Notes: generated by a model from the letters alone, not told the origin. DNA of 64,000 bases from Styela clava (GCF_964204865.1 NC_135260.1:15770478-15834477), one strand, 5' to 3'; counted from the stretch's first letter, positions 10,387-57,007 are shown. Translations and numbers: made by a program.

Positions 10387-10497
10387 GTGGACCTCCTGAA
10401 GTATGCGCACCACGATGTCGCACAGCCTGAACATTGTATATGTACCAGGTTAGGATTAAGGTGTGCGACATCTTGGTGCGCATACTTCAGGAGCACC
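10387..10497. mobile_element. MITE family A, copy 1 (short form, about 110 bp).
   Basis: Inverted ends GTGGACCTCCTGAAGTATGCGCACCA…GGTGCGCATACTTCAGGAGCACC. A-rich flanks, gaaaag and aaaaag. Confidence 0.6.
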
Positions 10498-20523: not shown

Positions 20524-20621
20524 TTAAGTCTTTTTTGTAGCAGGAGTTTCGTGGTATTTTACTCCGGGCAACACGCAAAGTATCTCGAACAATATATTTG
20601 CTGCTGTTATCGCCGTTGTGC
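20524..20621 (-). CDS. AGMAT: Agmatinase exon 8 (last): (G)TTAITAANILFEILCVLPGVKYHETPATKKT, stop TAA at 20524–20526.
   Basis: Acceptor ttttgacag|GC. Matches human GNTALLAANLLFEMLCALPKVTTV. Total CDS is 909 nt (302 aa), with exon phases consistent throughout. Confidence 0.82.
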
Positions 20622-20913
20622 CTGTCAAAAATAAAAAGCCCCTAAAGTTCTATGCACAAAATTGAAAGATCGAGTTTAAACATTTAAAAACTCCTGGGTT
20701 CAAACGAATGATTTCAATTCGTTCAAAAATTCAGATAATTTGAATTAATCTAAACTAAAGGGCACGAAATTTCAAAAAGATAAATAAAGCTATATAGTAT
20801 TTACACCGCCAGTCCGAGGTCACCTTGGGAAAAGTTCATCACAATTTGTTATCATGGTGATGTATCATCAGCGGAATTGACATATATATTTGAAAAGGGG
20901 TTCTTATACTCAC

Positions 20914-21077
20914 CAGTGGTGTCGTAGGGAGGCGCAACTTCCACCATATCAGCACCAATTATATTCAGTCCACGACAACCTCGAATTATTTCTAGTGCCT
21001 GAGAAGTAGTTAATCCACCAATTTCAGGAAATCCAGTTCCCGGAGCAGCGCTGGGATCCAATGCGTCTATATCGAAA
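20914..21077 (-). CDS. AGMAT: Agmatinase exon 7: (C)[54 protein letters not shown] + 1 nt.
   Basis: Acceptor tttatttcgcag|T. Donor ACTG|GTGAGT. Roughly 80% identical to human [53 protein letters not shown]. Confidence 0.88.
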
Positions 21078-21419
21078 CTGCGAAATAAATTGAAATTATT
21101 GATGCTACACCTCACCGTTTATTTCGTGTCCCATGGTGCTATGTATTCAATGGAATTTAATTAATTAGAAAATAATAATTCGACAATCTTGCAGTATCTT
21201 ATTTATGAATTAAAAAAAACTTTTTATTATTTGTGTTTTATCAGTCTTGAACCTACCTTATTTATTTAAGCTATGATTACGTAACGAATAAATATATTTA
21301 AACGTATATATAATATATTTTGAGAGCGGTGCATTTTGAATTTCTGTAGAATCACAATATTAGATCCAATTCAATTTACAATATTTTATATATAAATTAA
21401 AAATAATATAATCCTCTAC

Positions 21420-21520
21420 CAAATATAAGTTGGTGTTTCTCCTATTACGTCTCTTACTTCTTTCATCAGCGGCGTCAACGATTTATACCACAAGTCCTTG
21501 GCATGGATCATTCTAAAGCC
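21420..21520 (-). CDS. AGMAT: Agmatinase exon 6: GFRMIHAKDLWYKSLTPLMKEVRDVIGETPTYI + 2 nt.
   Basis: Acceptor ttatttctcag|GGC. Donor TTTG|GTAGAG. Matches human GFRVVLAEDCWMKSLVPLMGEVRQQMGGKPIYI. Confidence 0.85.
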
Positions 21521-21646
21521 CTGAGAAATAAATAAACAATAGCTTTTGTTATTGGAACCTTGTAAGGCATATAAGTACTCCACTCTTTTTTGCACAATCA
21601 TAACAATATGTACTATGAAATTTATTTATAATCAATAGGATTATTT

Positions 21647-21884
21647 GGCGCTCCCGTAGTATGTGAACCAAGATGGCGGAAACCGCATCCTATAGTATAT
21701 GTACCAGGTTAGAGTTAGGTCCTAATTTTATTCCAATTTTCCTTATTTTAGTTCTATCACGTGTTCGGAGACTAGCTAAGCGACTCCCTTAATATTTGTA
21801 CCTGAAATTATGGACTGACCCTAACCTGGTACAAATACTACGTTCCGGTGTCAGCCATCTTGGTTCACATACTACGGGAGTACC
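21647..21884. mobile_element. MITE family A, copy 2 (long form, 238 bp), 5' of agmatinase exon 5.
   Basis: Inverted ends GGCGCTCCCGTAGTATGTGAACCAAGATGGCGG…CCATCTTGGTTCACATACTACGGGAGTACC. 8-bp TSD GATTATTT (21639–21646) and GAATATTT (21885–21892). Confidence 0.7.
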
Positions 21885-21983
21885 GAATATTTACTTAAAC
21901 AAAGAGTGCTTGTTAAAAATATACACACACGATAAAATTTTATTATCTTCTAGCAACCTTACAATTATAATCCAACTTAATAC

Positions 21984-22179
21984 CTTATCTAGCTGCCAAT
22001 CAAACGAGTCTAAACTTCCCACACTGCCTCGAAGTCCTATTTGGAAAACTTTTGTTGGTATTATCAAGTTTTCTTCTATTGCTAAACGAAATGCAGTCCC
22101 GTGAGTGATTTTTTCGCCATTAGCAAAACTATTGCAGTCCGAATGAGCGTCCACATGCACCATAGCTACTGGGCCATAT
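21984..22179 (-). CDS. AGMAT: Agmatinase exon 5: YGPVAMVHVDAHSDCNSFANGEKITHGTAFRLAIEENLIIPTKVFQIGLRGSVGSLDSFDWQLDK.
   Basis: Acceptor tttaatttag|A. Donor AAG|GTATTA. The HVDAHxD metal-binding motif is present. Collinear with human HGPVGLLHVDAHTDTTDKALGEKLYHGAPFRR...VVQIGIRGSS. Confidence 0.85.
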
Positions 22180-22663
22180 CTAAATTAAAAATAAAGTCAC
22201 TAGAAAAAGCTTGTTTCGACCAATATCTCAGTCAAAACTACGAAACTTGATATTGCAAGATTTTTTCCAGGTAGGAATTTTAAGGCTATTTAAGAGGAAG
22301 TATTTATTGGACAAGAAGTTTTGTTATTATGTTGTTGTTGTTAGTATTATTCTTGTAGTTGTTGTTGTTGAAAAAATTGCTTCGCTTTTCAACTACTGCC
22401 CTTTTTGCTTTGAAATTTTCAGTATTTAACATTCTTGTTGTCGCTAGAAGGCTATTAGGTTACTATTATTATGTCTATCACGCGGGGGGAATAAATTTTC
22501 CCAGAACCTCTTTCGATATACCATTCCTTACCATACCTACTATTCTTTTAAAAATGTACAGTATGGACTCCGGTTGAGAAACACTTGTATGTATGTAAAG
22601 CTATAAATAAATAAACCAATACTTCATAATACAATTTCAATATATATTAAATGTTATACTCAC

Positions 22664-22712
22664 TTTTCTGCCATGGCCTGTAAAATTGGATACGATATAG
22701 TGTGATCTCCAC
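22664..22712 (-). CDS. AGMAT: Agmatinase exon 4 (49 nt): GDHTISYPILQAMAE(K), containing the GGDH Mn-site motif.
   Basis: Acceptor acacacag|GT. Donor GAAAA|GTGAGT. Matches human GGDHTITYPILQAMAKK. Confidence 0.82.
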
Positions 22713-22829
22713 CTGTGTGTGTTTATAAAAAATATATTTAAATCAATACCCTATTATCAAAAAATTATTCGTTACAAAATTTAAACTACAACAGTCATAT
22801 TTTCAAAATACAAAATAGAACATTTTTAC

Positions 22830-22944
22830 CTATGGACAATGGACGACAACCATTTTTTATTATTTCCTCATATTGTTTTTTGATATCATCACAACATTTC
22901 TTCAAATTGTAAAGATTCACTCGGACATCACCGATATCAGCAAC
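22830..22944 (-). CDS. AGMAT: Agmatinase exon 3: VADIGDVRVNLYNLKKCCDDIKKQYEEIIKNGCRPLSI + 1 nt.
   Basis: Acceptor cacgaacag|GTT. A second in-frame acceptor at 22980 would add 12 codons. Donor ATAG|GTAAAA. Matches human VADLGDVNVNLYNLQDSCRRIQEAYEKIVAAGCIPLTL. Confidence 0.78.
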
Positions 22945-23131
22945 CTGTTCGTGAGTTATACTATTAGAAATGATCTGTACCTGAAAAAGTTTTTACGTTT
23001 CTACAGTCTTCCAGAATCTAATTTTCCCATCAAACAAACGGCAAATAGAATTCCGTTGGATGCCCAGATTTGATGGGTTTTTGATTAAATTCCAAAGAAG
23101 TAAAATAAAGCAATCTTTTACTACTAAATAC

Positions 23132-23219
23132 CTGAATTGACGAAAATGGATCAGCGCCGGCTTGTATATTGCACTTGCGAACAATAACCGATTCTGATCT
23201 GATTTGCCTCGGACCAAAT
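23132..23219 (-). CDS. AGMAT: Agmatinase exon 2: (R)FGPRQIRSESVIVRKCNIQAGADPFSSIQ.
   Basis: Acceptor ccgttctccag|A. Donor CAG|GTATTT. Matches human RFGPRRIREESVMLGTVNPSTGALPFQSLM. Phase is consistent with exon 1. Confidence 0.8.
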
Positions 23220-24067
23220 CTGGAGAACGGTGTTTGTTGGATGAATATTTGCAAGAGAAAAATTATTTTTAAAACACTCTCGTTGTACTCATCATTTACG
23301 TAAAAGTCAGTGATCAATTACGCACATTGGTATATTCACGCAACCCTAACGATTTAAAATAGTTGATATTCATACATGATATAGCTAATATAATGAAGGT
23401 GCGAAGACAAGTGCAAAGATGTATTTTAAATTCACAGCAAAATATTGCACAAATGGAAATGCATGGACGATGCTTAGTTAATAGAAAAATAGCTTAGTTA
23501 TTAGGAAAATATACAAACTATTCCGGTTATGTGTTCAAAATGCTTTTAATTTGCAATATCAACAAAGGCCGAAGGTGAGTAGAGATATTTAGTATGAGCA
23601 ATTTATAAGCCAGTTTTGGTTTGACCTATTTAGATAAATCAACAGGTATCTAATGGTAGTAACAAAATATGGTGGACTAATAATTCAATCATTGGATGAC
23701 ATTTGAGATAGTATTTATATCGGTGTCGATTTTTTCCTGTTAAGGCGTGACCCATACATATACACTCATACCCATACAATATTGGTATTCACCGGACGCA
23801 ATAAGCCACAGCGCACGAACATTCACGATTATGGATTCATTATTCCGCGTATTTGTTTGCAGTTATTAACACCAATGGCACTTACGCAAGCTTGCTCAAA
23901 ATAATTTTAAAACCTCTCAAAAAAATAGAGAAGAATTATGTTAGAACAACCACAAAATAGAACTGATGCACTCAGAGTATATAATGGTTATGCTTAAACA
24001 AACGTGCGTATTGATGACATTCCAGTCGAGTATATCGGAACAATTTTCAACAACAATGTACACTCGC

Positions 24068-24165
24068 CTTGCTCCAGATCTATTCGAAGTCCCGTGATCA
24101 ATTGGAACTCCTACGAAACAAGCATCGAGGCCATCCGTGTTACGTGCAATTGGTAGCCTCAGCAT
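24068..24165 (-). CDS. AGMAT: Agmatinase-like ureohydrolase, exon 1. ATG at 24165; encodes MLRLPIARNTDGLDACFVGVPIDHGTSNRSGA + 2 nt.
   Basis: Collinear with human AGMAT MMRLPVQTSPEGLDAAFIGVPLDTGTSNRPGAR. The exon ends AG|GCGAGT, a GC donor; joined to exon 2 it restores the GARFGPR motif. An in-frame stop lies 18 nt upstream of the ATG. Confidence 0.75.
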
Positions 24166-25502
24166 AGTTGCAATACCTGTTTACAGAAGAACGTTGTACC
24201 AATATTTGCATAAAATTTAAAGAAATCGCTTAAAATTACCTGCAGGGAACGCCAATTCGCTAGCACTTGTTGGTTCATTAAACTTCTTCTCCACTTTATT
24301 TTCACACAGAAGAATTTTTGATTTTGGGACGTGTTCAGGAGCTATAACAAATTCAATGTGTTATATTCTTGGTAATGTAAAATAATTTAAAAATATTTCA
24401 TTCCGCCATGAACTAGAACTCGGCAAATATTAACAAAATTCCATTTCCACTGACAAATTCAAAATATCTCCATTACAAATGTGCTATGATAAAGCTATAA
24501 GTTTTCTCACCGGTGTGGTGATGACACTTTCTTGTAGAATTGTGTGACATGTTCTTTGTACTTTGAAATGTAATATGGAATAAGAACTATGCTAAGAAAG
24601 CTAATCTTACTGTAATCAAAAAGTTCCAAAAAACACGTTTGAGACTATCTTATGAAAAATCTAGGTGTAGTGTGAAAAGCCTGCCGATAAATTTCTGAAT
24701 TGTTTAATGAATACATTTTTTTAACTTTTCCATTCTCTTTGAACAATTTGCTTATTACCTACCTAGTGCTATATTCCACCTAAACTGACACTAGAGTCTT
24801 CAATTTGCCATACGATGAAGCCGATATCAGATTTATTTTGCATTTGTTCAAATATTACTATTTTCTGCCCTTATTATTTTACAGAATATCACGCTGCATC
24901 CGCATACTTTTGCACCTGTGTACAATTGCATCCACGGGCATTTGCGCTAAGAGAAGTTTGCACTCTCATAAATTTGTACCAGTGTTGTATGAATGTCCGT
25001 GCGTGCGAAGGCTGGTGCGAATACCATGAATCAGAGCACAATAAAGCAAATGCTACGCCATTATTATGTCAGTGTAATAAGTAATTCATCGAATCTATAA
25101 GCGCAAATGAAGCTCCGCGAAAACTTCTCCACCTTGTTCAATTTTCAGCTGACCAAATTGATGAATTTTTATTCTGGTGAATGACAAAATCAGTGACTGA
25201 ATACGAAATCACATGGTATGTCAATATTAAACTTACACGCTACCATTCCTCCCAACTATAAATTACATTTTGAGGCTTTCGATTGGCTGTTTCAGTTCGA
25301 AGTGAGTGTTGGTAATGTTTGTTAGTAAATAGAATTACATTGATAATATTTTCGATACTACGGTACTGGAACAAAAGTCAATTATCTAACTAACATATAT
25401 CCTCGTGTAACGAGCCTAGATGGTCTTACTTCGAATCTCCGAAAAATCAAGATAACTGAAAACAAATTTTTGTTTGTCGACTACACTGAATTATAACTGA
25501 AT

Positions 25503-26419: not shown

Positions 26420-26900
26420 CGTCTACGGGTGAAAATGTACATGGGTGCAAATGTACGTGGGTGTAAATGTACGCGGGTGCAAAAGTATGTGGGTGCAAAA
26501 GTACATGGGTGTAAGTGTACGCGAGTGCAAAAGCACGTGGGAGCAAATGTACGCTGGTTCAAATGTGTGCGAGTGCATATGTCCAATGGTGCAAATGTCC
26601 GCGGGTTCAAATGTACCGGGTGCAAATGTACATGGGTTCAAATGTCCGTAAGTGCAAATGTTTTTGGGTACAAATATCCATGGGTGCAAATGTTCATGGG
26701 TGAAGCAAAAATCTGCAGGTGCAAATGTATGGGTGCAATTGTTTATGAGTTCAAATGTTCGTATGCAGTATGCAAGTGAAATTGTCCTGGGTGCAAATTA
26801 CAGGTTCAAATGTTCGGGTGCAAATGTAAGTATGCAGATGAAATTGTCCTGGGTGCAAATCATTTGTTCAAATGTACGGGTGCAAATATAAGTGGGTTCA
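26420..26900 (+). repeat. Minisatellite of about 28 degenerate tandem copies of a 17-bp unit, GTGCAAATGTACGTGGG. An inverted partial copy lies at 26113–26140 and direct copies at 26230–26275.
   Basis: Visible periodicity (gtgcaaatgtacgtgggtgtaaatgtacgcgggtgcaaaagtatgtgggtgcaaaagtacatgggtg…). The unit lacks stop codons in several frames on both strands. This produces track ORFs 26113..26625, 26423..26689, 26429..26779, 26445..26651, 26515..26703 and 26652..26891. Confidence 0.85.
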
Positions 26901-28290: not shown

Positions 28291-30122
28291 CTACTGCCTC
28301 AAACTGGGTTAAGTCATCTCACTGTTTCATCGCTATTTTTATATTGTTTTATAATTGCCGCTTTATTTGATGAATACAATGCACAGCCAAAATTTTACAC
28401 GTTTTAAATAGAGACTTGGAAGCTTACAGTCAAGGAACCGCAGTCTCGGCACGCGCCGAGTCATGAAAACACAATACCACGCCCCTACAGAGAGTTAGAG
28501 ATACCTACGTGATCAAGATCCACTTCAACTATTATTATACCTTAAGTGTCGAAGAAGCCGCAAATCAAGGTTCCTAAAGATTTTATTACTGACGAATGGC
28601 TGATTTTAGACTTTTATATTAGCAACAGTTTCCTAGGTTTCGACACATTCGAAATGTTACAACCGACTCCGATCAGAGAGATTTATTTTTTCGTCAACCA
28701 AAATAAAATAACAGCCATCGTTATAAAAAAAATAACAACAAGTATTAAATTAGTTTGGTATAGACAGGAGGTAAAGATACGACCAGACGGTCATCAAAGT
28801 CAGCTCCAGGCCAAGTTGTATGCCGCCAACCATGGTATTATCAACAAGCTCTAAATCTCGTATTAGATAACACTATCGAAAATTTCTGCAATTTCCATAT
28901 AGCACGTGTTCCTCAACCAATAATAGGAGCTGATTTTCGGTCAAAACATGATCTTTTGGTCAGCTTACGCAACTCACGCCTCTTCGACCCAAACTGCTAA
29001 TATCTACATATACGGCAAGAAGTTCATTGACAAATCAATCGCAGCCAACTTCTTTTCACTCAGGCATCAGGGCCACTAGGCACATAGGTTGAAATAATTC
29101 GAAGATTTGAAAATCCCTCGACATGCATCAGTTAGGGCGAAATTCGTGAATTCTTGGATCAGCGGAAGGTGAACTACTGCGAAGTGAAGGAGCTAGTGTC
29201 TAACCTTGGCCGAAAGGTCAGAGTAACCCGTTGAACCACATTCGTGATTGTTTAATTAATTCCCTTGAATGAGGAATTCTCAGTAAGCGGTAATCTGCGT
29301 CCCTGCTCTTTGTACACACACCGCCTGTTGCGGTACTACCGGTACCAAACTTTGCTGTAAACTTTTTGCTTCTTTTCATGATGTAATGTTTGACTTTTTA
29401 TCCTTTATGTATTAATTACTGTTGGACTTAATCATAGATGTCGCTGCTTGTAAACCAGTTTTGGTTTCTCGCGCCACCTTTTGCCCTGAAATGCCAAAAG
29501 TGTATTTTCTTTGCGTGCCGAGAATACGATAAAACTTAATTTGATTTTTAGAGGAAGTAAAATTTATAGCAAGGTTATTCCGCAAGTGAATCCGTGGAAC
29601 GATCATTATCGAATGTAGGCGCCGTCGGCCGACCGCACTTGTCTTTAGGTGCCTTCTGCTTCGTTTGTCGGTGTTTTTGTGTAGTTTTGTGGTGACGTCT
29701 GCGCTTCGATGCCGGGTGAAACGTAGATGATGACTCTCAAAACTGATAATGCAAAAATGAGACACTTGCGGCCGTTAATATACAAGCCTGTATAAAGTCA
29801 GGAACGCACCGTAAACCATTGTACCCACGGGGCTCATTCACCAAAAACAGAGAACGGTTGATAATTCTCAGCGACATAGATAAAAAGTCGGAAGTGGGGC
29901 TTGTCATTTTCAAATACCTCACCATTCATTCGAATATTTTCAAATACTGAAGTTATGCAATTGTATCATTTGTATGCGATTTCTTTTATTTCGATGGGAT
30001 CACTAACTTACCGAAAACGTACTCAGACAGTTCCCTGGGTGTTCAAACACAATAGGAAACACATTTCATCAATACCTCACGAGAAAGAGTCACCTGTCAG
30101 AAGTGGCTTCAATAAAAAAAAT

Positions 30123-30141: not shown

Positions 30142-30941
30142 TTCATCTAAAATTTAGATTCTATACCACTGACGGGCGACAAAAACTGGATAGCGCCAAT
30201 TCGAAATTTTTGTTCAAGTCGATTCGAAATGCCCATCCTCTTCAGGGGTATATGTTGGAATGTAGACATCAACCCGCATCGACCTTGCTTCATCATCTTA
30301 TGTTATCTGGCGATCAATCACATGATAATTGAATAGAAATGAACGTCCGACCTGCATCTCATTAAAGTTGCAATATAATAAGTTCACCTTCTGATAACAC
30401 TCTCTACAATCTGGACTAGACATTTTAATTTTTATCAGTATATGAAATAAAAATTCCAACAGATTTTCATCAGTTAAAAGTAACTCATGATGATACTATT
30501 GGTATTTCGAGCTATGTCACTTCCGAATTTTTTTCAGTGAGATAATTATGTTTAACTTTGGACAAGCACAATACAATAAACACACTTGAATATTTATTAT
30601 CTACAACATAACCTATATCGGTTGAGAATAAATGTGCTAAAGAGTAACTAGTATAATAGAACTTGTATACAAATTAAGTTGAAAACAGGTTCTAATCTAG
30701 ATGGGCACATTCAAGCTGTGCTTTGCCTGTCGTGTCGTGCATAGAAAATATACATTGTGGAAAGGGTTAAGATAGATAGGTCACCGTTACATGATCGAAA
30801 TAAGAAACTAAAAATGAACAAAGTAACATCTTATTTAATAGTGCACTGTTGATTAAAATTGTTGATACGTCATACATGGGAGAGATTATGTGTTTGAAGC
30901 TACAGTAATATTTGACAACTACTATTCAACTGTATTGGAAA

Positions 30942-33554
30942 TCACTCGTCATCATCTTCATCTTGTCGTGTTCTCACAACAGCAGAAGACTGAAAACCTT
31001 GACTGCCAATCAAACCATGAGCAGTGTTGAAAAGATTTATTGGAGAATTTCCATCGGTTATCAGAGTTGATGTTAAACCGAGGGCCTTCAGCATTTTCAC
31101 TTGCATATCTGGTCCGGCAGAAGCAATTTTGCAAATAGTATCCGGTCCGATGGTTTCAACCATATTTTTGAATTTTTCTGTCTCGATATCACCTAACTGC
31201 TTCTGTTTCTTTACTTCCAATTCGTCCTGCTCACGAGAATATTTCAGTTCTGCATCACGGGCTGCGGTCAAGCGCTCTAACTCAGATGTTGAATCGATTC
31301 GTGCTGCCTCTGCTTTGAGTTTTGCTTGGTCTACAGCAGCTTGACCTTCAATTCGAGCAGCTTCTGCTCTTGATTGTGCTTCTGCCTTAGCTTGCCCTGT
31401 GCTTTCAATTGCAGCACTCAATGATTGAAGTTCCAGAAGATCTCTTCTGGACCGTTCAGCCTCTGCTTCATCAGTAATCTTTTGACGTTCAAGTCTGCCT
31501 CTTGCTTCCTGCTCTGCCCTTTCTGCTTCATGACGTGCAGTCGCTTCCTGGGAGTTTGTTGTGATTTCAATAGCAAGTTGAACAGATTTCACCAGAGCAT
31601 CTCGGGTTCTTTGGTCCACAGGTTCAACGGACTGGATATCGATAGAAGTTATAGTCAGCCCATTTTGTGGGAAAACGAACTTGTCACGAACTTTTCCTTT
31701 TTCATCTACGCCAAATACAGAAGACCTAATGATACGAGATGAATTCTTATGAAAATCATCGAAAGTGACAGAAGCAACAGCCCCTCTTACACGAGATGCA
31801 ATTGCCTTGCAACAATCTCCCACAAAATCAGGTACACTGAATAATTTTGCAGCATCTTTCTGGTCTTTTCGGGCATTGTCTGTATCAAAATACCAATTAT
31901 ATGCAAGTTGCAATGAGAGACGTGCATGGTCAGCAGTTTCAATGGTAATGACATCAGTACAAAAATCTGGTCCAAGAAGCAACGCAAGCGACCTAATGAC
32001 ATTCGGACGTTTTGGTTTTCCACCCGAGAGCGACAATTGCGTGAATTGCTCATCAGGATTGAGCATCACAAGCTCAGGTCCGAATATCACTCGTGCTTTC
32101 TTTTCCTTGTAATCATAAATTTGTACACAAGCATTATGAGGAACTCTATAAGAAACTACTCTTGTTTTATCACGACGTAATTGAGAGGGGCCTTTGTTTC
32201 CTTTCTCCCACATCCCTCTGTCAGCCGAAGGATCGATAGCTGATGTCACTAGTGCCTCAACATTGGGAGGAAGCTCTTTCTCCCAAAGTTCTTCATCATG
32301 GGTCAACATGTAAGTGCGGCCACAAACAGCTCGAACTTTACCAGTTTTTAGGTCACGTATGTATATACCTTCATTTTCATCGAGAGAAATTGCACTTCTT
32401 TTAGCAAATACATTGACCTCAACGGATGGAACATATTCGGTGGGTCCTCGGATCATCCACTTGTCTCCTGGCTTGCGCTGTATTTCATTGCTATCATCAA
32501 AATGAGCTTCTTTTGCTTGTAATATAAGGCCCTGATCTTCTCCAAGCACATAAACATCCTGAATGCCTTTCTCTAATTTTTCACCAGGTTGAAGGAAAAA
32601 AGATGCTTCTCCTTTCACAAGTTTGCGCTTGCCAAGTTGGTTCTTTCCATCATCTTCTGAAACTGGGTCAACTATCACACAATATTGTCTACTGTTCAAA
32701 GTAGTTATATCAACAACACCTAAGACTTCTTCATGAACATCTGGAATATGAGATTCCGTGTCCGACATACGAATTAACCATTCTTCTCCATTCTTTCGTT
32801 TCACATTCAAAAAGTCTGTGAAGGTACGACTCGCTTTCATATGCAAAGCTTTCTTTTCAGTAAGAACATATGCCTCCACAAGTTCGACAACTTCTTCATA
32901 GGTTCCGGGTAAATATGCTCCAACTTTTTTAATTATCCACTCCTCCCCAGTCACACGCTCAGTGCCATCCCGATCAACTGTTTCTTTTCTCGCACGCAAT
33001 TTTATTGCTTGATTTTTGCGAATCACTGTGGCTCTGATAGTCTCCTCTACCAGAACCTCTTTGCGTGGAATGTAGGTACCTGGTCCTTCAAATAACCATT
33101 CGTCACCAGCCACTCTCTTAACATCACCGTCAGTAAAATCAAGTTCCGCTCTCATACGCAACGCAGAATTTGCAGGGACAATACGCAGTGCACAAACAGC
33201 AGATTTTAAAATTTCACCAGGATAAAGTGGGAAGGGATCCTGAGCCAAACGAATCTCTCTATCAGCATAGCTGAGCTTTGCCTGACCAGACTGGTCATAC
33301 TGAACTTCACCTTCTTTATTTCTTACAACAGGATTTTCTATGGTGCAATAATGACGAGGTGGAATCGTAATCATACGCTCCGGTCCATATATGACTCTTT
33401 CATTATCTTGCCGAATGTAGGTTTTAGGCCCAAGCTCCAACTTTGTTACATTGGTGTTCTGGTCCAAAACATGGATGTAGAAATAAGGCGGAATTCTGTA
33501 AAGTGCTTCATCCTGGCCGGACATGTTAGCAAATGAAGGTGCTTTCTTACTCAT
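30942..33554 (-). CDS. MVP: Major vault protein: a single uninterrupted ORF of 870 aa with no introns. The true start may be the second ATG at 33524 ([22 protein letters not shown]).
   Basis: Collinear with human MVP along the whole length: the [13 protein letters not shown]…[14 protein letters not shown]-terminal motifs, the vault repeats, the shoulder region, and the C-terminal coiled coil ([17 protein letters not shown]…AEAARIEGQ…LKAEA). ATTAAA lies about 110 nt after the stop. A TATA-like TATATATA sits about 40 bp upstream of the ATG. Confidence 0.93.
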
Positions 33555-36034
33555 TTTGAGTTTTACAAATACCTATACAGACTGTAAATATATATAAGGA
33601 TTAAAGATACAGTATTTTCAATTTTTGTTTGGTAAATTGGTACCAATCTTTTAATTTACTTAGCGAGACATCTATGACTAATTTTAACGTTTTCCTTTGC
33701 TATTTATTACATATATGAAAATATGTTGGAAACAGAAAACAATAATATAACATCAGAAAATCACTACGGCTGTACGGCGCTAAAAGCAAACAAAATACCA
33801 GATTCTCAGTACATGAATTCACTTTGATAGCATGAAAACTTATATTACTGTATTACTAAATTGGATAAGGGTGATACAATAAAATCGGGGTCTTTGGAAG
33901 TTTTTTTAGAATCATGACATGAAAATTAATGCAATTATTTGTGTTCTGCTTCACTGTGTTCTGAAGAAATTCCAGAACAAAAATTGCCTCATCTCAGCTA
34001 AGGTGGTGTGAACCTGATTTGCCAAAGTCAGATAGTTGCATGCTGATAAAGTACAAGTAGTATACAGATTTAAAAATTAAATGATATACATCTGTGTGAG
34101 ATAATGTGAATTGCATCAACATTGACTAATAAAGGTTTATTCTTTCCAAAAGCAAAGCACAATTAATACAGTAATTTCATTGAGAAAAAATCATCCTGTT
34201 ACTTGTCAAGGAGCATCTATATTTATTTTTGTTCTTTTTTTATGCACAAACATGTGTTTACGCAAAAACAAAACTATTTCCTAAAAAAGCCAATCAACAG
34301 ACAAACCAATGTTTTCTCATAAACCATTTCTCTTCATTCTCACATCTGAATTAACAGAAGTTTTGCAAATATTGTTTCCAGGTAACTAAACTCTTTTCAT
34401 TTAATTTTTAATTAAATGAAAACTACTGTTATTGCTGTATTGCTTGCAGTTTAACAACTGAACAACATGAATTGAACAGAATTATAATCATATCATTTTG
34501 ATTGATTGAAGTTGATTTCATTTTTTCAAGTATTCGCTTACAACATGAACACCGGCCACAGTTTGCCTCAAGTATTCTTTTTTAGGAAGCACTGTATCAC
34601 AATTCTGATGATTTGTTTCACCATTCTGGAATCAAGTTCTATTAAGTGGTCTAGTGACTAGTCCACATCTTCCTGCACCTAACTTCGATTTGACTTCATG
34701 TAACTACTGAACTATACCGGTAACCACAGAATCAGCTTTGATATCTTTTTTGATAAATATTTTTCTTTACCGTTCACAAAATCTATATTTACTGATTTAA
34801 TTTGGCAATGATTATAAAATTATTAATATGGTGTGACAAAGAACTTTTATCATTTAGTTTTTTATTAATTTACTACAGTACAGCAGTACCGGTACCACTG
34901 TACCATGTAATTTATTCAAGGTTTTTGTGTATTACTTCCTTATATCTCTCTGTTTGTGAGTGTGAATTAATTTAAGACTTTTCCGGTGAGTGAACACGTA
35001 CCGTTACGGTACGGTACCACTTCTTTTGGCAAAACCTTCCAACTTAAATCTGTACGCTAAAAACCTTACTCAAAGTATTGTTTGCCCCTCTGATTCTATA
35101 ATCCTGTAATCAGTTTTTACTTTTTTTTGGTAACCATTTTATCGTCTGTTATGCTGATTATGGATTCGAAATAAACTCGTATTTATTATTATACACAGCA
35201 TTATCAGAACAAATATAAAATTAATAATAATTAAGACTATAAAACGTTACACACACAATAACAAATGGCGAACGTTTGACAGCCATTTAACGTTGCGAAC
35301 CGTTACTGTTACAATAATAAGCTTCATGAGCAGAGAATAATAAAAGTCGAACGCGCAATTTATGCCAAGCGCACACTCAATGGAAATAGGATATTATTCA
35401 GGCGAAATTGCTACGTGTGTGCGCTTTCATAAAACGAGGTTATTCATTGCACCATTGTGATGCGACCCACGAAAGGGTATTACCGTTTCTTGCGCACACA
35501 GTAAACAAAAGAAACATCCAAACAAGTTCCTGTAGCAAATATCTATTTGTGATCAAGTATGAGAAGAGCTACGTTTGGTCATTTGAAAAGTTTTAACTCC
35601 AGTCAATGCAATCTACTTCAATTAAAAATTTGGACCATTCAATTGACAACTTCGCAGTTAGTAGCGGGATATAATATAACCACGTGAGGAACACCGTATT
35701 TACTTTATTCTTTGACGTTAACGTTAATATTTACGAATTCAATACGTTTTCCTTAGGTTTTATCGCAGAAACATCTGTCGCCCGTACTAAACAATCGATA
35801 AAACCATAATCGATAAACCCAACTTAACTAAAAACTCAACCAATCGACTATAATATGTGTTCTTTACATTATATCTCAACAAGGTGGCCCAGCACACTTT
35901 ACAGCTGTCGTAATGTTGGTAAATCTAAATTGAACGGAATTCGGAATTACGCATGAAGTTAGTTACATCCACCCACTGGAGTTTACCAAACACTTCGACA
36001 AGCAACGTCATATCCTTCCTTTGTATATTACGTG

Positions 36035-38453: not shown

Positions 38454-38663
38454 TTAGTTATTACTGGGATCTATTTGATCGAATAGTGAATTAGTATGTC
38501 TTTTTATTACTTCCCAGCAATTCTTCACCGCATTCTCGTCACATGCTATAACTCCCACTGACACACGAAGAAAATAGATTCCTTCAACTTCCGACGATAT
38601 GAAATGAATTTCTCTGGAATCGTTTATCTGTCTCAAAAGACGATCGTTGATATCTCTGTTTTT
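38454..38663 (-). CDS. DDC: DDC-like exon 11 (last): KNRDINDRLLRQINDSREIHFISSEVEGIYFLRVSVGVIACDENAVKNCWEVIKRHTNSLFDQIDPSNN, then stop.
   Basis: Acceptor gattaacag|AAA, phase 0. Matches human [54 protein letters not shown]. The assembled CDS is 1521 nt (506 aa). Confidence 0.78.
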   Translation of the reverse strand, partial: KNRDINDRLLRQINDSREIHFISSEVEGIYFLRVSVGVIACDENAVKNCWEVIKRHTNSLFDQIDPSNN

Positions 38664-38986
38664 CTGTTAATCAAAAATATAGCAAAGTTTACTACTTTTT
38701 CAATTGTAAATATATTTACCTATAGCATCTGCGCAAGGTAAATCAAAACGCTATTACGCCTCATACAATTCAGAACAACGTATGGCCTCTTCCACACATA
38801 CAAACTTTATATTTGCTCTAGATTCATTACAAGCCAGAAACAAAGCATACATAACTCCACAAACATTTTCCAATGTGATTTGTACTATTCGAAATAATTA
38901 TTATCTCTTGTGAAAAATGGTATCAACAAATCACATTCTCACATACGACAATCTCCCTTCCTAATCATAATGAATTATCGAGATAC

Positions 38987-39208
38987 CTTTCTGTCATTTT
39001 TGTATAGTTTGAGTCGAAAACAAACCAGTCCAAGTTCAACGGAAAATACAATTTCAAATCTTTTGTCTTCTAACACATAAGATTCAAACATTTTCGCCAA
39101 CGCTACGTCTTCTCTGATTTTATGTCTCAGTCCTTCGATACCGATAAGTCGAAAAACAAACCAAAGTTTCAATGCACGAAATTTTCTGCCTAGAGGAATT
39201 TGACAATG
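38987..39208 (-). CDS. DDC: DDC-like exon 10: [74 protein letters not shown].
   Basis: Acceptor tttcttccag|CAT. Donor AAG|GTATCT. Matches human [67 protein letters not shown]. Coordinates are anchored to track ORF 38975..39334. Confidence 0.82.
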
Positions 39209-39291
39209 CTGGAAGAAACAAAACTTTGTGATAGTCATATCCGTGAATTTAACGCAAAAGTTTTTTTGCAACATTTGCCACGAATTTCGAA

Positions 39292-39393
39292 GCTCCCGCA
39301 GTATGTACACCAAGATGGCGCACAGCCTGAACATAGTATGTGTACCAGGTTAGGTAGGTTTCAGGTTGTCCGCCATCTTGGTGTACATACCAC
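39292..39393. mobile_element. MITE family A, copy 3 (short, right end partly deleted), in the intron between DDC exons 10 and 9.
   Basis: GCTCCCGCAGTATGTACACCAAGATGGCGCACAGCC…CCGCCATCTTGGTGTACATACCACC. Track ORFs 39200..39418 and 39249..39437 lie inside it. Confidence 0.6.
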
Positions 39394-39708
39394 CAAATTT
39401 GTACGTGAAAGCATATGAACCTGTACATGTGTTTCATCTGTAAACTAGGGGGTAATTTGAAAGAGTCAAGAACTTTTCGGTTGTGCTAAATAAGTTGGAT
39501 TTTTAGTATGATGTACATCTATATCTGATAAAAATTGCACAGTCAAGCCATTTATATACAGAAAAATTGATATATGTAAACAATACAAAAATGTGTTAGT
39601 ATATATATATATTCGACCCCGAGATAGATAAATGTATTCAATATTTCTTTGATTGGTTTACATTCATTGTGAAATTGATTTGTTAACAAATTAAGTTAAG
39701 CAGCTTAC

Positions 39709-39799
39709 CCTGTAGTCAATTGCAACGTTTTCCTCGTCGTGGCGTAAATATAATGGATTGAGTTTGAATGAATTGATTAAATCCAAACTATTTTTGACC
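39709..39799 (-). CDS. DDC: DDC-like exon 9: (W)VKNSLDLINSFKLNPLYLRHDEENVAIDYR.
   Basis: Acceptor gtatttcag|G. Donor AGG|GTAAGC. Matches human [32 protein letters not shown]. Confidence 0.8.
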
Positions 39800-40630
39800 C
39801 TGAAATACGTGTTAAACAGTTATTGAATTCATTGGAAAATAAACGTAAAACCTCTTTATTGTACGTTTTTTGAGTATCTCAAAAATGTTGAATCTCACTT
39901 TTTCCGCATGCCCCACCTGTTTGACGCTTGTCTCAGTCGTATCATTTGTCACTCGTTCCCCACGTGTCTCACATGCCCCCCTTGTATCATTTGTTCCACC
40001 AGTCAGTCATACACCACACACAAGTCACACAAAAAAGACAAGTGCGGGCCACGTAGGACAAGTTCAACACATGGAATTCGACATTTTGAGACAACATCGA
40101 TTTTAGGGAATATTTACCCTCGTTATACTCATATAGTTACCCTTGTGTGTTCAACAATAGCATAATATATAAGATTTTACATTGGCAGTTGGCACACGCA
40201 TTTGCTCATAGTCAACTACCATTTCGCAATAAATAAAATTATATTACTTGCTGACTTTGCTAATTATTACATCAAGTTAGAAAAATCTAAATCGCCCAAA
40301 CATTCCAACTATATATAAGACCAACAACTTGCTCAACATAGAAATTGTTGGTTCCCGAAACAAAAAAGATTTAGGATTTGTATATCCATTAGGCTTCTAA
40401 GGGACGAACTCATTATAGTCCTTCTATGGTTTTGCGCTAGTGGATTCGTATACAAGCAAAAGTAAAGACACCCGCTACCAATGATGATCCTCGTTGGGCT
40501 TGACGGAATTTATTTAAATTTATACAATATTACTGAAATTAAACAGCCTTATCGGCCTTAAAGAATAATTTTCCAGCACTATACAAATATAGAAACCGAT
40601 CGGCCACAGTTTTTCATAATATAAACTTAC

Positions 40631-40698
40631 CAAAGTGGTGAGAAGTCGAAATTCACCATCAGCCATTTGTGTGGATTGAAATTGTAAGAGGTAACCAT
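40631..40698 (-). CDS. DDC: DDC-like exon 8: [22 protein letters not shown] + 2 nt. The NPHK motif carries the PLP-binding lysine.
   Basis: Acceptor ttcggtcag|ATG. Donor TG|GTAAGT. Matches human [23 protein letters not shown]. Confidence 0.82.
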
Positions 40699-41113
40699 CT
40701 GACCGAAAGCAATTGGCATGTTATAGTATTGATTTCATAATAGAATGTTTTAGAAAGGGCAACATACGTAATTTAGAAATACGACGTACGAATCAAATAT
40801 GCCGTTTTTAAACATTCACTCGTCGCAATCGAAAGGGGAGGCGGAAGGAATGTAGGAGAAACGTAGTAGTGGAATGTTAAAAAATAAAGCCAATTTGAAG
40901 TTAAAATTTAGTGCTAAATTATGAGAAAATATGAAACGATGTAAAATGGCTTTTTAACGGACATTTCCATTTTTATCTATTGAAGGGGTGAAACAATTGC
41001 TCCAACAGTCAAAAAAATATTTTGATCTTGTTTATTGTCACTAATATTTTGAGTCCGAGTTAATAAATCTGGTTATTCATGCTAAGTAAATTCAGTGTAT
41101 TATGTATTCCCAC

Positions 41114-41208
41114 CTCAATTCCTTTCATTCGATGTCGAAATTCGGGACAAATGAAACTGCATCCGGCGTATGCTGCATCAACATGAAGCCATACATCCTC
41201 TTTGTTAC
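41114..41208 (-). CDS. DDC: DDC-like exon 7: (C)[31 protein letters not shown].
   Basis: Acceptor cttacattcag|GT. Donor GAG|GTGGGA. Nearly identical to human [32 protein letters not shown]. Confidence 0.85.
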
Positions 41209-41350
41209 CTGAATGTAAGAAATTGAAATCGGTTCCTCTGATCTTTTTCGTTAAAATTTTAGGTTGCTCACAAAAGTGCATAGCAATTATAAAAAAAGTG
41301 ATTCATTGACATTTTAAATTGTCATACTCAAATTACCGCCATCAACTTAC

Positions 41351-41417
41351 AAACTTCTCCGATTTCTTGAAGATTGTCAAATGAACAACAGGCCGTTGTA
41401 CCAAGGGTTGCACAAAC
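41351..41417 (-). CDS. DDC: DDC-like exon 6: VCATLGTTACCSFDNLQEIGEV + 1 nt.
   Basis: Acceptor ttaactcag|GTT. Donor T|GTAAGT. Matches human [21 protein letters not shown]. Confidence 0.8.
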
Positions 41418-41706
41418 CTGAGTTAAAAAGAAGACGGTTTTAAAACATATTTCATTCACTACAAATATAACCATGCGAATTGCGTATATTTCAGTTCGAG
41501 ATTCAATTTGCATTAATTTATTATGAGCGTACAACAGCATTTCTCACTCTTTGTCGCGGTCAATTTTACTGATTGTGAACGTATTTGTCCATAAATAATA
41601 GGTGTATTTTAGTCAATTTTCAGAATATATCTCTAGATTGTGATAAAGCATGTTCGACTGAAAAATTTATTCAATATTTCTGTGAGTAATAATATTTAAA
41701 ACTCAC

Positions 41707-41825
41707 ATAAAATGGTATTCTTCCATCATCTTTGTCTTTTTCCATTGCCTTTTTTAATGCTTCTCCTCTAACTGCAATATCCTTATCAACAGTCACTTTA
41801 TGTAAATGCACCATTGCTATGAGAC
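41707..41825 (-). CDS. DDC: DDC-like exon 5: (C)LIAMVHLHKVTVDKDIAVRGEALKKAMEKDKDDGRIPFY.
   Basis: Acceptor ttttcacag|GT. Donor TAT|GTGAGT. Matches human [39 protein letters not shown]. Confidence 0.8.
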
Positions 41826-42229
41826 CTGTGAAAACTTACAATTATTATTTTATTCATTTCGCCTTGAGATTTTTGGTTTTCAAAAAAAATGCGCTATGCT
41901 CCAAAGTGGGCAAGTTTGTCCACAATAAGCATTCTTGTAAGTCAGATGTAAATATTAAAATTATATCTTCGTGTTGAATATTTTGAAATCTACAGTGCAG
42001 TGCACTTTTGTAGATACTAGCACTTCAGATAAAGATATAAAAATATAATATTCATAAAAGAGCAAGTTCGTTACGTTAAACTTAATTTTGTATGCTTCAA
42101 AATTGTTCTGAACGCAGCCGTCTTGATTTTGAAGTAATTGGAAACTGGGCCATCTTATGTTATAAGTCTGTGTAAACTATCATAACGATATCTCGGGGAA
42201 ATATTCGTTGGTGTAAATGTTACAAAATT

Positions 42230-42464
42230 GGCCGCTTCCGTAGTATGTGAACCAAGATGGCGGACACCGGAACGTAGTATGTTTACCAGGTTAGGGTTAG
42301 GCCATAATTCTATTTCAATTTTCCTTATTTTAGTTCTATTACGAGTTCGGGAACTAGCCAAGTGACTCCCGTAGTATTTGTACCTGAAATTTGGCCTAAC
42401 CCTAACCTGAAAGGCATACTACGTTCCGGGTCCGCCATCTTGGTTCACATACCACGGGAGTACC
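42230..42464. mobile_element. MITE family A, copy 4 (long form), in the intron between DDC exons 5 and 4.
   Basis: GGCCGCTTCCGTAGTATGTGAACCAAGATGGCGGACACC…CCGCCATCTTGGTTCACATACCACGGGAGTACC. Flanks ACAAAATT and CAAAAATG. The internal sequence matches 21647–21884. Confidence 0.65.
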
Positions 42465-42708
42465 AAAAATGCAATATACTGATTTGCAATTAACTTTAAG
42501 CAATTCACTTTCGCTTACAGTCGAATGATGGAATGTGGCCTTGAATCGATTCATTTAAAAGTGGTAGTTTCATTCGAAGTCTTTGCTTTTAATAACTGGG
42601 GCCAAGTTCAGTTTCATATCATCATGTAAAGCACTTGTTTAATTCGGGAGATCGCATGCATTTGCCGCCACCTCGGAAACCACGCTATTGATTATGCATA
42701 AAACTCAC

Positions 42709-42867
42709 ATGCTCTTTCTACCGATGAATGACTATATTCTGATGTGTATGCAACAAGTTTTGAGGCAAGCTCATGTTGTGAAATGTTAGGATATATAGCT
42801 TCCAATTTTTTCAGTGTTTTTGTCCTTGCTGCCAGAATTGTCATAATGGTTGCTTCGCTAGCGGTAC
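42709..42867 (-). CDS. DDC: DDC-like exon 4: (G)TASEATIMTILAARTKTLKKLEAIYPNISQHELASKLVAYTSEYSHSSVERA + 1 nt.
   Basis: Acceptor tttttttcag|GT. Donor GCAT|GTGAGT. Matches human GSASEATLVALLAARTKV…KLVAYSSDQAHSSVERAG. Confidence 0.82.
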
Positions 42868-43174
42868 CTGAAAAAAAATTGACAGATATATTTTCATTGA
42901 GAGAATTTATTTCAAATAACCGGTAAAGGAAATATTAGATTGGTTTTAAAGAATCAAAAATCACTCAGCTAATTGGTCTCACTATTCAACAATGGAATAA
43001 ATGTGGTACAAAATAAATATTTCCAAGAAATCTTGAATAAAGCTTAGGTCTTCGTTTAAACCTGACTAATCTCGTAACGTGTCGTCATACAAATTGGTTG
43101 AATAATTGTTAACGTCACGTCGAAGCTTTTACAGTATTCCAAATATTTATAATTGCTGTCTAATCTGTCGTAAT

Positions 43175-43250
43175 CATATTTATTTATCCAACACACATAC
43201 TGTTTATATATATATACAATATAGTATGTGTGTTGGATGAATAAATATAT
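43175..43250. repeat. 25-bp inverted repeat or hairpin abutting the donor of DDC exon 3.
   Basis: atttatttatccaacacacatac…gtatgtgtgttggatgaataaatat, with a (TA)n spacer. The exon 3 donor GTATATATAT is at 43260. Confidence 0.7.
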
Positions 43251-43260
43251 ATATATATAC

Positions 43261-43381
43261 CTTGGACAACCCCCAGTCCTGGGCCAACACCTTTGTGTAT
43301 GAAACAGTCAGGCAAACCAATGGCTTTCCCCAGCCAATCGAGCACTACAGTTTCTAATTCGGTACACGATGGACTTGATGC
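43261..43381 (-). CDS. DDC: DDC-like exon 3: [40 protein letters not shown] + 1 nt.
   Basis: Acceptor caattttag|GCA. Donor CAAG|GTATAT. Matches human [28 protein letters not shown]. Confidence 0.82.
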
Positions 43382-43439
43382 CTAAAATTGAAAAGTAACG
43401 CAGGTGAGAACAGATGAAATGAAATCCCTGTCACAGTCT

Positions 43440-43610
43440 GGTGTTATGTTCACAGCAAAACCTGTCAGCATGTGATAGCGCCCCTATCCTGTTAGAGTAG
43501 GGGGTCGGAGCCTCCCCTTCTACTCCTCCCGTGGAATTCGGTGGAAGCCCTAACCGAACAGCTGGTACGTGAGCCACCATGCGGCGGTGGAGAATCCATG
43601 AAGTCTTTGT
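43440..43610 (-). other. GC-rich block of about 170 bp in the intron between DDC exons 3 and 2, with a 7SL/Alu-like GGTGGCTCACG motif. Possibly a SINE or small-RNA-derived element.
   Basis: The minus strand reads ccgccgcatggtggctcacgtaccagctgttcgg…cacgggaggagtagaaggggaggctccgaccccc. Its composition contrasts with the flanks. Track ORF 43431..43637 is probably spurious. Confidence 0.3.
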
Positions 43611-43910
43611 CATTTTATTATCTTTAACCGGATTCAACCCATAAATTCACACATTGTAATCATCGTTAAGGTGGCACCATGCACCAACCGTCAGACCAAC
43701 GCGCATCGTTAACTAGCGTTATTTAGATATGAAGTATTGCTAGGGCCAAATCAGTGTATTTTCTACAGCATGATAATTTTATCACGTCATCAAATGTTAT
43801 CAAGTTATTAATGTGTTATTATTCTTTTAGCCTCTATTTTTGCATGATTTCCACTTTTTTTGTAGGCCTATATTATTTTATCAAATATCTATATCAGGCG
43901 TCCATCTCAC

Positions 43911-44119
43911 CCACGTAAAGCCAATACATGCACAAGCATCAGACAAAATATCTCCGAGTATTGCTGGATAACTCGTTGCACATGGGAAGTAGGCAAAAAA
44001 TCTCGAAGATTGCCAATGAGTCATCCCTTCCATAACGACTTTGTCAAGGTCAGCAAACAAATCTTCCCACTTTTCTGGATGTTGTGGCGCATTCTCGGGA
44101 ATTAACTTTCTCATAAATC
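43911..44119 (-). CDS. DDC: DDC-like exon 2: (G)FMRKLIPENAPQHPEKWEDLFADLDKVVMEGMTHWQSSRFFAYFPCATSYPAILGDILSDACACIGFTW.
   Basis: Acceptor tgtatttaag|GA. Donor TGG|GTGAGA. Matches human [70 protein letters not shown]. Confidence 0.85.
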
Positions 44120-44583
44120 CTTAAATACAATAACATGAACGTTGAATACTAGAATATACAATAAACTCAGTTTGGTTGACATTCAAATAATGTGAAAAGT
44201 CATATAATAATATCTGAATGTGTAACGCATTCAACCCGATATTGCACCTATTAATATATCTCTCTTGGTAGTTCATGTTCGAATCGCAGCATGCTCTGTC
44301 GAAACTTAATTAAAGTTAGTAAGTAGGCCTACGTCAATCTGGTTAGCGACTTAACGGAACCTTATTTTTTCAATCAAAATACACGATTAGAGAACACAAA
44401 TTTATTTATATACAAATGATAATAAATTTTCAAATTGTTTGAAAACCGTGTGTGAATGTTGTAGTATATTTTAAATCTATTCCTCAAAACACCATGTATC
44501 ACACTTATAAAAATTGACTTATGAGTAGCAGTACAGTTAGAAATACCCAACTTTAATCAAACATATAGGTCATCATATTTTAC

Positions 44584-44743
44584 CTGGCTGTACAGATGGA
44601 AATGCTTGTCTTCCATCCAAACTTTTGTAATAGCCGATGACGTACTCTATCATGTCTTTCGCAGCTTTTGTGAAGGCTTCATCCGACATACCCATTCTGT
44701 AAAACTTTTCGCCATTTTCAGGAATAACCCTGTTTTCTGCCAT
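44584..44743 (-). CDS. DDC: DDC-like PLP decarboxylase exon 1: MAENRVIPENGEKFYRMGMSDEAFTKAAKDMIEYVIGYYKSLDGRQAFPSVQP + 1 nt.
   Basis: First ATG after an in-frame TAA. Donor CCAG|GTAAAA. Matches human DDC [36 protein letters not shown]. The start may instead be the internal ATG MGMSDEAF. Confidence 0.75.
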
Positions 44744-51643: not shown

Positions 51644-52298
51644 TAATCAACACAGTCGGTATCGGGATCCACTGTAACAGATCCTTTCACGGTTACAACG
51701 TCTGGGATCAGATGGAAAAGTGCATCGCTGGGACAATCACAATCATTGTTTTCTAAGACTGAAATTTCAGCATTCGTAAGTTTCTTCGACCACATCATCA
51801 AATTTTCTATTGTTCCGCTGAACGTTTCAGTAGAGGCGGTCCATCCACCTCCCATTTCATCTTGATCTTGACCGATTACTATCGTTCCAAATCCCGCTGG
51901 CAACGACGTTATTCCTGCTAATGTACGCGTAACGTAATGAGTACCGTCGACAAAAAGCTGTACCTCTGTATCAGTAGTCGAGAGGACCCAACAAAAATGA
52001 AAAATATTAACAGTTCCGGCAGTTCTTAAAGAGATCGATGCTGTATTTGTTGTATCATCATTGTCATTTAAAAAAGCAAAGGTATGACTTTCAGGATCGT
52101 CAAAAATAATCTTGATAGCATTGTCGTATGTTTCTGTAGCGTAAGAAAACAGAGTTCCTGATCCGACCGCTGTTCCAGGTGTTACTTTAAACTTGCTGCA
52201 GATTGTAAACTCTGTGAGTTCAGGCATATCTATATCTACCAACAAATAGTTCTCAACTGCTGGTGTACCAGGAAATATGTAACGTGTTTGTGGGCAGG
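51643..52298 (-). CDS. Pentraxin-domain terminal exon: (T)CPQTRYIFPGTPAVENYLLVDIDMPELTEFTICSKF…HFCWVLSTTDTEVQLFVDGT…IVIGQDQDEMGGGWTASTETFSGTIENLMMWSKKLTNAEISVL…DCVD, then stop.
   Basis: Collinear with the CRP/SAP pentraxin fold: FVFPKES…FTVCLHF, the HxCxS/TWxS signature (here HFCWVLS), EFWVDG → QLFVDG, and ILGQEQDSFGG…VNMWDFVLSPDEI → VIGQDQDEMGGG…LMMWSKKLTNAEI. A phase-1 acceptor gaattttcag|CC lies inside the track ORF; the track's M is TTG. The stop TAA overlaps AATAAA. Confidence 0.82.
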
Positions 52299-53347: not shown

Positions 53348-53476
53348 TTGAGCATATAGCAGCTACGGAGTAAAATCCATCTTCACATACACAACCTTGA
53401 GCTTGTGTCAGCACGTTCAAAATTCTACAAACTTGATTTGTTGTGCATGCTATATTGCCATTAGCACATTCATCAG
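53348..53476 (-). CDS. EGF-like exon A: DECANGNIACTTNQVCRILNVLTQAQGCVCEDGFYSVAAICS, 6 Cys, phase 1-1.
   Basis: Acceptor caattacag|CT. Donor TCAA|GTAAGC. Joined to the pentraxin exon, A+CC gives Thr with no frame break. Carries the CxC…GF/Y EGF signature. Confidence 0.7.
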
Positions 53477-54382: not shown

Positions 54383-54552
54383 AAAAAATCGCATATATAA
54401 AAAAAATTGCAAAGAAGAACAAATAATATATATTATTTAGTAATACGTAAAGTGATCTGAAGTCTTTCACAAACAAGTTTCTTGTGCTTAAAACAAGATC
54501 ATTTCAGACAAAAATATAATAAAATAATTATCAGTATAAAAATACAACTTAC

Positions 54553-56992: not shown

Positions 56993-57007
56993 AAAAAAAA
57001 TACTCAC

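Follow-up and report, generated by a model that had tools for sequence, protein, structure and literature searches.

A single-exon major vault protein gene in the ascidian Styela clava, with probable early and RNA-mediated loss of all ancestral coding introns

The major vault protein (MVP) gene of the ascidian Styela clava is functional and apparently single-copy, its coding sequence occupies one uninterrupted exon, and it probably lost all of its ancestral introns early in the history of its clade, wholesale and by way of a spliced mRNA. We analyzed the window, that is, the whole stretch of 64,000 nucleotides in which the gene lies, together with MVP loci and sequences from other deuterostomes. 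The gene is located as follows:

30942–33554, minus strand: MVP coding sequence, a single exon of 870 codons plus stop, recognized by its open reading frame, Pfam matches, alignment to human MVP and identity to a RefSeq protein

An open reading frame (ORF) scan of the window reveals that the MVP frame runs from ATG to TGA over 2.6 kb on the minus strand without interruption and encodes 870 amino acids. Pfam recognizes an N-terminal repeat array (Vault, 3.8e-66, in four stretches; Vault_2, 1.5e-39; Vault_3, 2.7e-34; Vault_4, 5.4e-19; the vault repeat domain profiles being PF01505, PF17794, PF17795 and PF17796) and places the MVP_shoulder domain at residues 528–647 (1e-53). A search against solved structures returns one alignment, of residues 15–851 to residues 4–851 of human MVP (1244.7 bits), with the shoulder domain and, after it, the C-terminal cap-helix coiled coil collinear with solved MVP structures. 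The Styela protein is therefore full length and collinear with its human counterpart, and the match cannot be one of chance. The preliminary description of the locus, which had proposed one uninterrupted 2.6-kb frame collinear with vertebrate MVP, was right on both points. The protein is also 100% identical to XP_039272615.2 (“major vault protein-like”, Styela clava, NCBI RefSeq), from which it follows that the window comes from Styela clava, a stolidobranch ascidian, and that the public gene model predicts the same protein as the ORF in the window. In sum, the Styela clava protein is an ordinary MVP, and its roughly 70% identity to vault-forming MVPs predicts that it would assemble into vault particles.

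Alignment shows that the N-terminus MSKK is common to Styela, Ciona, Clavelina and two of the relatives introduced below (L003 and L006). We note a second in-frame ATG at codon 11 of the ORF (window 33524–33522, minus strand), which sits where vertebrate MVP begins and at a position where the relatives have no methionine; it would be relevant only if the mRNA leader were very short.

Comparison of gene structures reveals that the single exon of Styela is a derived state. We examined the genomic MVP loci of Ciona intestinalis (L001), Clavelina lepadiformis (L002) and the hemichordate Saccoglossus (L007), each protein being mapped exactly onto its own locus with a splice-aware search. MVP is split into 18 coding exons in both Ciona (gene span 11.5 kb) and Clavelina (15.9 kb), and all 17 coding introns have the same position and phase in the two species, the first of them only 19 nt into the coding sequence. 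Saccoglossus MVP consists of 13 coding exons separated by 12 introns over 9.7 kb; projected onto one alignment, 10 of these 12 match tunicate introns in position and phase. Human MVP has 15 exons, of which exon 1 is non-coding. The overlap between Saccoglossus and the tunicates places at least ten introns in the deuterostome ancestor. The Styela coding sequence has none, compared to 17 in Ciona and Clavelina, and given that ten of those 17 are shared with Saccoglossus, the intronless state of Styela is derived from a multi-exon one. To judge from the introns of these three genes, the ancestral ascidian MVP would have had at least the ten shared introns and, most simply, all 17.

The two genes that flank MVP in the window are, by contrast, rich in introns:

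38457–44746, minus strand: DDC-like (aromatic-L-amino-acid / DOPA decarboxylase-like) gene, the upstream neighbor, in 11 collinear coding pieces

20527–24180, minus strand: agmatinase/ureohydrolase-family gene, the downstream neighbor, in at least 8 collinear coding pieces

The 11 pieces of the DDC-like gene, which align to human AADC (9hrh/3rbf, E about 1e-104) and span its residues 4–469, imply at least 10 introns, and the stop of this gene lies 4.9 kb upstream of the MVP ATG. The agmatinase-like gene contains at least 7 introns; its pieces align to guanidinobutyrase (3nio, E 4.8e-68, residues 17–316) and also match the agmatinases 4dz4 and 7lol, and its N-terminal exon was not located by structure-based mapping in the window. 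The figures of 7 and 10 introns originally given for these neighbors thus stand as minimum values. All three genes lie on the minus strand. As neighboring genes keep their introns both in Styela and in the related genome L004 described below, the loss is specific to the MVP gene. According to the paper on the S. clava genome, which makes no mention of MVP, intron-less genes are fewer in this species than in Ciona robusta (PMC7540406).

Several other features of the window deserve a brief record. A dispersed element of ~250 bp matches itself in both orientations (palindromic, MITE-like), with copies that are 71–92% identical and sit inside introns of the agmatinase-like and DDC-like genes as well as elsewhere in the window:

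42150–42500; 21643–21890; 54141–54387; 39292–39354; 56932–56997; 10383–10458: copies of the MITE-like element

Between MVP and the agmatinase-like gene, a minisatellite block (26426–26893) is built of a 16-nt unit (GGGTGCAAATGTACGT) repeated about 17 times and then a 62-nt unit repeated about twice, and gives rise, on either strand, to long ORFs that are spurious. On the minus strand, 51646–52365 holds an open frame of 240 aa in which Pfam recognizes a Pentaxin / Laminin_G_3 domain (2.4e-20), and short cysteine-rich, EGF-like-looking exon fragments occupy 53340–59536 on the same strand; frame and fragments may belong to a single large gene with several exons that encodes a secreted protein. 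At 28764–28997 on the plus strand, about 2 kb past the end of MVP, a motif …PIIGADFRSKHDLLVSLRNSRLFD… recalls retroelement aspartic proteases. This resemblance is an impression, and the motif an unconfirmed candidate only; the ORFs at 27.5–30.3 kb, suspected to be a retroelement remnant, gave no Pfam match. Scans of the window for tRNAs and Rfam families returned nothing.

To place the loss in time, we turned to relatives of Styela whose sequences (L003, L004, L005, L006 and L008) come from assemblies of public read runs (SRR3402057, SRR10746996/7, SRR32906212 and SRR25569784). Four read-run relatives are 82–88% identical to Styela at the MVP protein level, compared with 75–78% for Ciona, Clavelina and Phallusia. 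In a neighbor-joining tree of MVP, built from 786 gap-free columns with 200 bootstraps, all tunicates group together (100%) and fall into two sister clades, one made up of Styela, L003sp, L006sp with L008sp, and L004sp (100%), the other of Ciona, Clavelina and Phallusia (100%). L004sp is the first branch within the Styela clade, and the branch leading to that clade is long. Ascidians are divided into Stolidobranchia on one side and Phlebobranchia with Aplousobranchia on the other, and the MVP tree mirrors this accepted split, which argues that MVP was inherited vertically.

The earliest-branching relative is the most informative one. Its contig L004 carries an uninterrupted MVP ORF of 863 aa (L004:3507–6098) preceded by 3.5 kb of upstream flank, and the sequence from a second run (L005) is 99.8% identical to it. 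A further gene lies in the flank:

L004:995–1855, minus strand, opposite to MVP: CHMP1B orthologue in 5 pieces, head-to-head with MVP and ~1.6 kb from it

Comparison with solved structures recovers CHMP1B nearly at full length (E 6.5e-64, residues 9–197 of 199), while Pfam on the concatenated CHMP1B fragment found no match. The gene is split by four introns of 61–86 nt with normal acceptor ends, and as these introns are intact, L004 represents unspliced genomic DNA. An uninterrupted MVP gene on a genomic contig implies, in turn, that the intronless state is older than the split between Styela and L004sp. A second contig, L008, contains an uninterrupted MVP ORF of 885 aa with 1.86 kb of upstream flank and bears the contig number 1,080,770 in its run, as is typical of shotgun DNA. 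Judging from these contigs, the intron loss is ancestral to the whole Styela-type (stolidobranch-like) clade and not specific to S. clava, and it is ancient, with the Styela/L004sp divergence as the lower bound on its age. The lineage-specific loss that had been suggested for this gene is consequently correct relative to other ascidians, though not confined to S. clava, as the L004 relative shares it. We also observe that the short CHMP1B introns and the head-to-head layout in L004 suggest a compact genome, in which MVP and CHMP1B possibly share a bidirectional promoter region; CHMP1B is absent from the Styela window.

The gene has been maintained by selection throughout this time. No internal stops interrupt MVP in Styela, L003, L006 or L004, and across these four sequences pN amounts to 0.08–0.13 and pS to 0.77–0.90, values that we report in place of dN/dS as synonymous sites are saturated. 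Such a low pN next to saturated synonymous sites indicates strong and long purifying selection and, with it, a functional gene. A second S. clava MVP protein does not occur among the best 120 of 2773 matches, nor do relic MVP exons occur elsewhere in the 64-kb window (best E 1.9). Within these best matches and this window, the Styela gene is apparently the functional, single-copy orthologue. Saturated synonymous sites, together with a loss shared with the diverged genomic contig L004, also bear out the early suspicion that the event is ancient and the gene no recent retrocopy, to which the lack of a poly(A) remnant (see below) adds.

The manner in which the introns disappeared can be read from the former exon junctions. 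At the amino-acid level, 15 of the 17 are seamless, with no insertion or deletion; the remaining two, at introns 1 and 11, lie in segments whose length differs from species to species. All introns of one gene are gone, their removal was exact, the same state is found in the whole clade and the neighboring genes are untouched, a combination that favors an RNA intermediate. In the explanation we prefer, and consider probable, an early ancestor of the Styela-type clade would have lost all 17 coding introns, at least ten of them of deuterostome age, most probably because a fully spliced MVP mRNA was reverse-transcribed, so that the loss was wholesale. Both the RNA intermediate and the single event are what we infer from the pattern as a whole.

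This explanation may take two forms. A retrocopy could have taken over while the multi-exon parent was lost (retrogene replacement, leaving an orphan retrogene), or a full-length cDNA could have converted the resident MVP gene. We lean slightly toward replacement by a retrocopy, given that a conversion tract would have had hardly any 5′ homology ahead of intron 1, which interrupted the coding sequence after only 19 nt. The genes around MVP in the Styela window do not recur beside MVP in Ciona, Clavelina, Saccoglossus, L004 or L008. We note, as a control, that Ciona and Clavelina, whose MVP loci both contain introns, share no neighbors with one another either, and micro-synteny is therefore without power to separate retroposition from conversion in situ.

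The 3′ flank offers few traces of retroposition. The following features are found downstream of the MVP stop:

30834–30839, minus strand: ATTAAA, candidate polyadenylation signal, about 100 nt after the MVP stop

30593–30598, minus strand: AATAAA, alternative canonical polyadenylation signal, about 345 nt after the MVP stop

30534–30528, minus strand: A7 run, about 410 nt after the MVP stop

The ATTAAA mentioned in the preliminary description is thus present where expected, on the coding strand at 30839–30834, and in relatives the 3′ UTRs of transcript-like contigs extend for at least 250–520 nt. Within 1.5 kb after the stop, the A7 is the only run of seven or more A, which confirms that a poly(A) remnant is lacking, and no evident target-site duplication flanks MVP. 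With synonymous divergence saturated, however, both hallmarks are expected to have eroded, and their absence only weakly lowers the membership of Styela MVP among retrogenes. The two original alternatives, an ancient retroposed copy turned functional gene or intron loss, accordingly find support as a pair in the intron map, the seamless junctions and the purifying selection.

[quoted passage not shown] Three features lie just upstream of the MVP ATG:

33582–33600, minus strand: TCCTTATATATATTTACAG, a TATA-like motif followed by TTTACAG; candidate TATA box or, alternatively, candidate tract plus AG of a 3′ splice acceptor or spliced-leader (SL) trans-splice acceptor

33596–33589, minus strand: TATA-like motif TATATATA, 42 nt upstream of the MVP ATG

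33573–33575, minus strand: in-frame TAG stop between the candidate acceptor and the ATG, 21 nt before the latter

A TATA-like motif had been reported ~40 bp upstream of the ATG, and it is indeed present, at −42; its reading as a promoter is ambiguous. TTTACAG (33588–33582) directly adjoins TATATATA, its AG (33583–33582) being 28 nt before the ATG, and the context TTATATATATTTACAG|T fits the AT/pyrimidine tract and CAG of an acceptor equally well. It is quite possible, although we incline a little against it, that the mature mRNA is still spliced at TTTACAG, either by removal of an intron in the 5′ UTR or by SL trans-splicing, in which case TATATATA would not be a promoter element. The AT/pyrimidine-rich tract with its CAG close to the ATG points in this direction, as do YAG motifs 20–46 nt upstream of the ATG in L003, L004 and L008, but such motifs are common in AT-rich DNA, and in L003 the sequence continues past its own TTACAG. 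Two transcript-like contigs from relatives carry leaders of at least 48 and at least 59 nt, more than transcription from a TATA box at −42 could yield, which renders the promoter reading uncertain and speaks for splicing. The 5′ leaders of the five available sequences are, on the other hand, not alignable (48% column identity), and the motif is not conserved in the leaders of the relatives. Likewise, a transcript-against-genome comparison of L006, a transcript-like contig, and L008 for a splice or trans-splice junction found UTRs that could not be aligned, the two being different species with 86% nucleotide identity.

Ciona adds a 16-nt spliced leader, ATTCTATTTGAATAAG, to the transcripts of at least 58% of its expressed genes (PMC7986045), which makes trans-splicing of Styela MVP more plausible. 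The first ten nucleotides of L006 (L006:1–10, TTGTATTAAG) loosely resemble the 3′ end of the Ciona leader, TTTGAATAAG; taken as a published stolidobranch spliced leader, however, this decamer has no match in the searchable literature. At its other end, L006:2947–2968, this transcript-like contig terminates in a Nextera adapter (CTGTCTCTTATACACATCT).

Whichever way the 5′ end is formed, the coding region is unaffected. The stop-to-stop frame of MVP begins at 33572, and since the in-frame TAG separates the candidate acceptor (33583–33582) from the ATG, with no further AG in that interval, no upstream coding exon can join at the candidate acceptor. The MSKK N-terminus common to Styela, Ciona, Clavelina, L003 and L006 agrees with this. 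“Intronless” is established for the coding region only.

Among accounts of the loss itself, the main competitor to a wholesale, RNA-mediated event is a stepwise one, in which independent genomic deletions or several partial cDNA conversions would have taken out the 17 introns singly or in small groups, spread over much time. The long branch to the Styela clade, the fast evolution of tunicate genomes and a sampling without intermediate taxa, which leaves room for several events before the L004sp split, would all accommodate such a history. We nevertheless consider it unlikely. All 17 introns are gone in every clade member examined, the earliest-branching one included, while neighboring genes keep at least 4, 7 and 10 introns. 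Moreover, genomic deletions of introns commonly leave insertions or deletions behind, whereas 15 of the 17 junctions in MVP are exact to the codon.

A more specific and quite improbable proposal, which would connect the retrocopy version of our preferred explanation with the candidate acceptor, is that Styela-type MVP is an orphan retrogene whose expression at a new site was enabled by SL trans-splicing. The TTTACAG acceptor would then receive the leader on a transcript begun elsewhere, for example one that runs on from the DDC-like gene, 4.9 kb upstream on the same strand, and a promoter-less retrocopy could have been translated immediately. If true, trans-splicing might be a general facilitator of retrogene replacement in tunicates.

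An artefact or a non-functional copy, whether a processed pseudogene of recent origin or contaminating cDNA in the assembly, is effectively refuted: intronless copies of multi-exon genes are, generically, often processed pseudogenes, but the 870-codon frame of Styela MVP is intact with pN far below pS, it encodes the only S. clava MVP among the best 120 matches and equals the RefSeq model, it is embedded in contiguous non-coding flanks without poly(A), and the same structure recurs in independent genomic contigs of other species.

We therefore return to wholesale loss through a spliced mRNA and to what it contributes. In this chordate lineage a large housekeeping gene has lost its 17 conserved introns completely, and the loss is confined to that gene. 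With an exact ancestral intron map and a lower bound on the age of the loss, it provides a tidy test case for RNA-mediated loss or retrogene replacement in tunicates, and the intron loss may also mark the Styela-type (stolidobranch) clade as a rare genomic change. Knowledge of vault function and of the mechanisms of intron loss is unaffected by it; the case is a clean but ordinary instance that will not surprise a specialist.

Compared to canonical metazoan MVP genes, as represented by Ciona, Clavelina and Saccoglossus, the Styela gene encodes a protein of the same architecture and length, 72–78% identical to other invertebrate deuterostome MVPs. It differs in its structure, with no coding introns in 2.6 kb where these genes have 12–17 over 10–16 kb.

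Orphan retrogenes and retrogene replacement are known from human (PMC3548309) and from SYCP1 in amphioxus (PMC5803294). Similarly to these, Styela MVP is a functional single-exon gene where the outgroup gene is multi-exon, no parental MVP copy was detected among the best 120 matches or in the 64-kb window, and the gene is under purifying selection, the event being so ancient that poly(A) and target-site duplication would have eroded. In contrast to them, its relocation is without support from synteny, which is unconserved at this scale even among intron-containing ascidian loci.

In the reverse-transcription model of intron loss, a cDNA recombines with the resident gene (PMC3652778). Styela MVP resembles this model in the precise removal of its introns, with 15 of 17 junctions seamless, in that the lost introns are mutually adjacent, and in that only one gene was hit while its neighbors keep theirs. 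The classic pattern of the model, however, is the loss of a few adjacent introns with a 3′ bias, whereas in Styela MVP all 17 are gone, and with intron 1 at 19 nt the model needs a full-length cDNA and a crossover within a very short 5′ segment. A search of the literature found neither MVP nor ascidians reported as a case of such intron loss or retrogene replacement. By its structure, the MVP gene adds one more instance to a familiar phenomenon, the wholesale RNA-mediated loss of introns or the replacement of a gene by its retrocopy.
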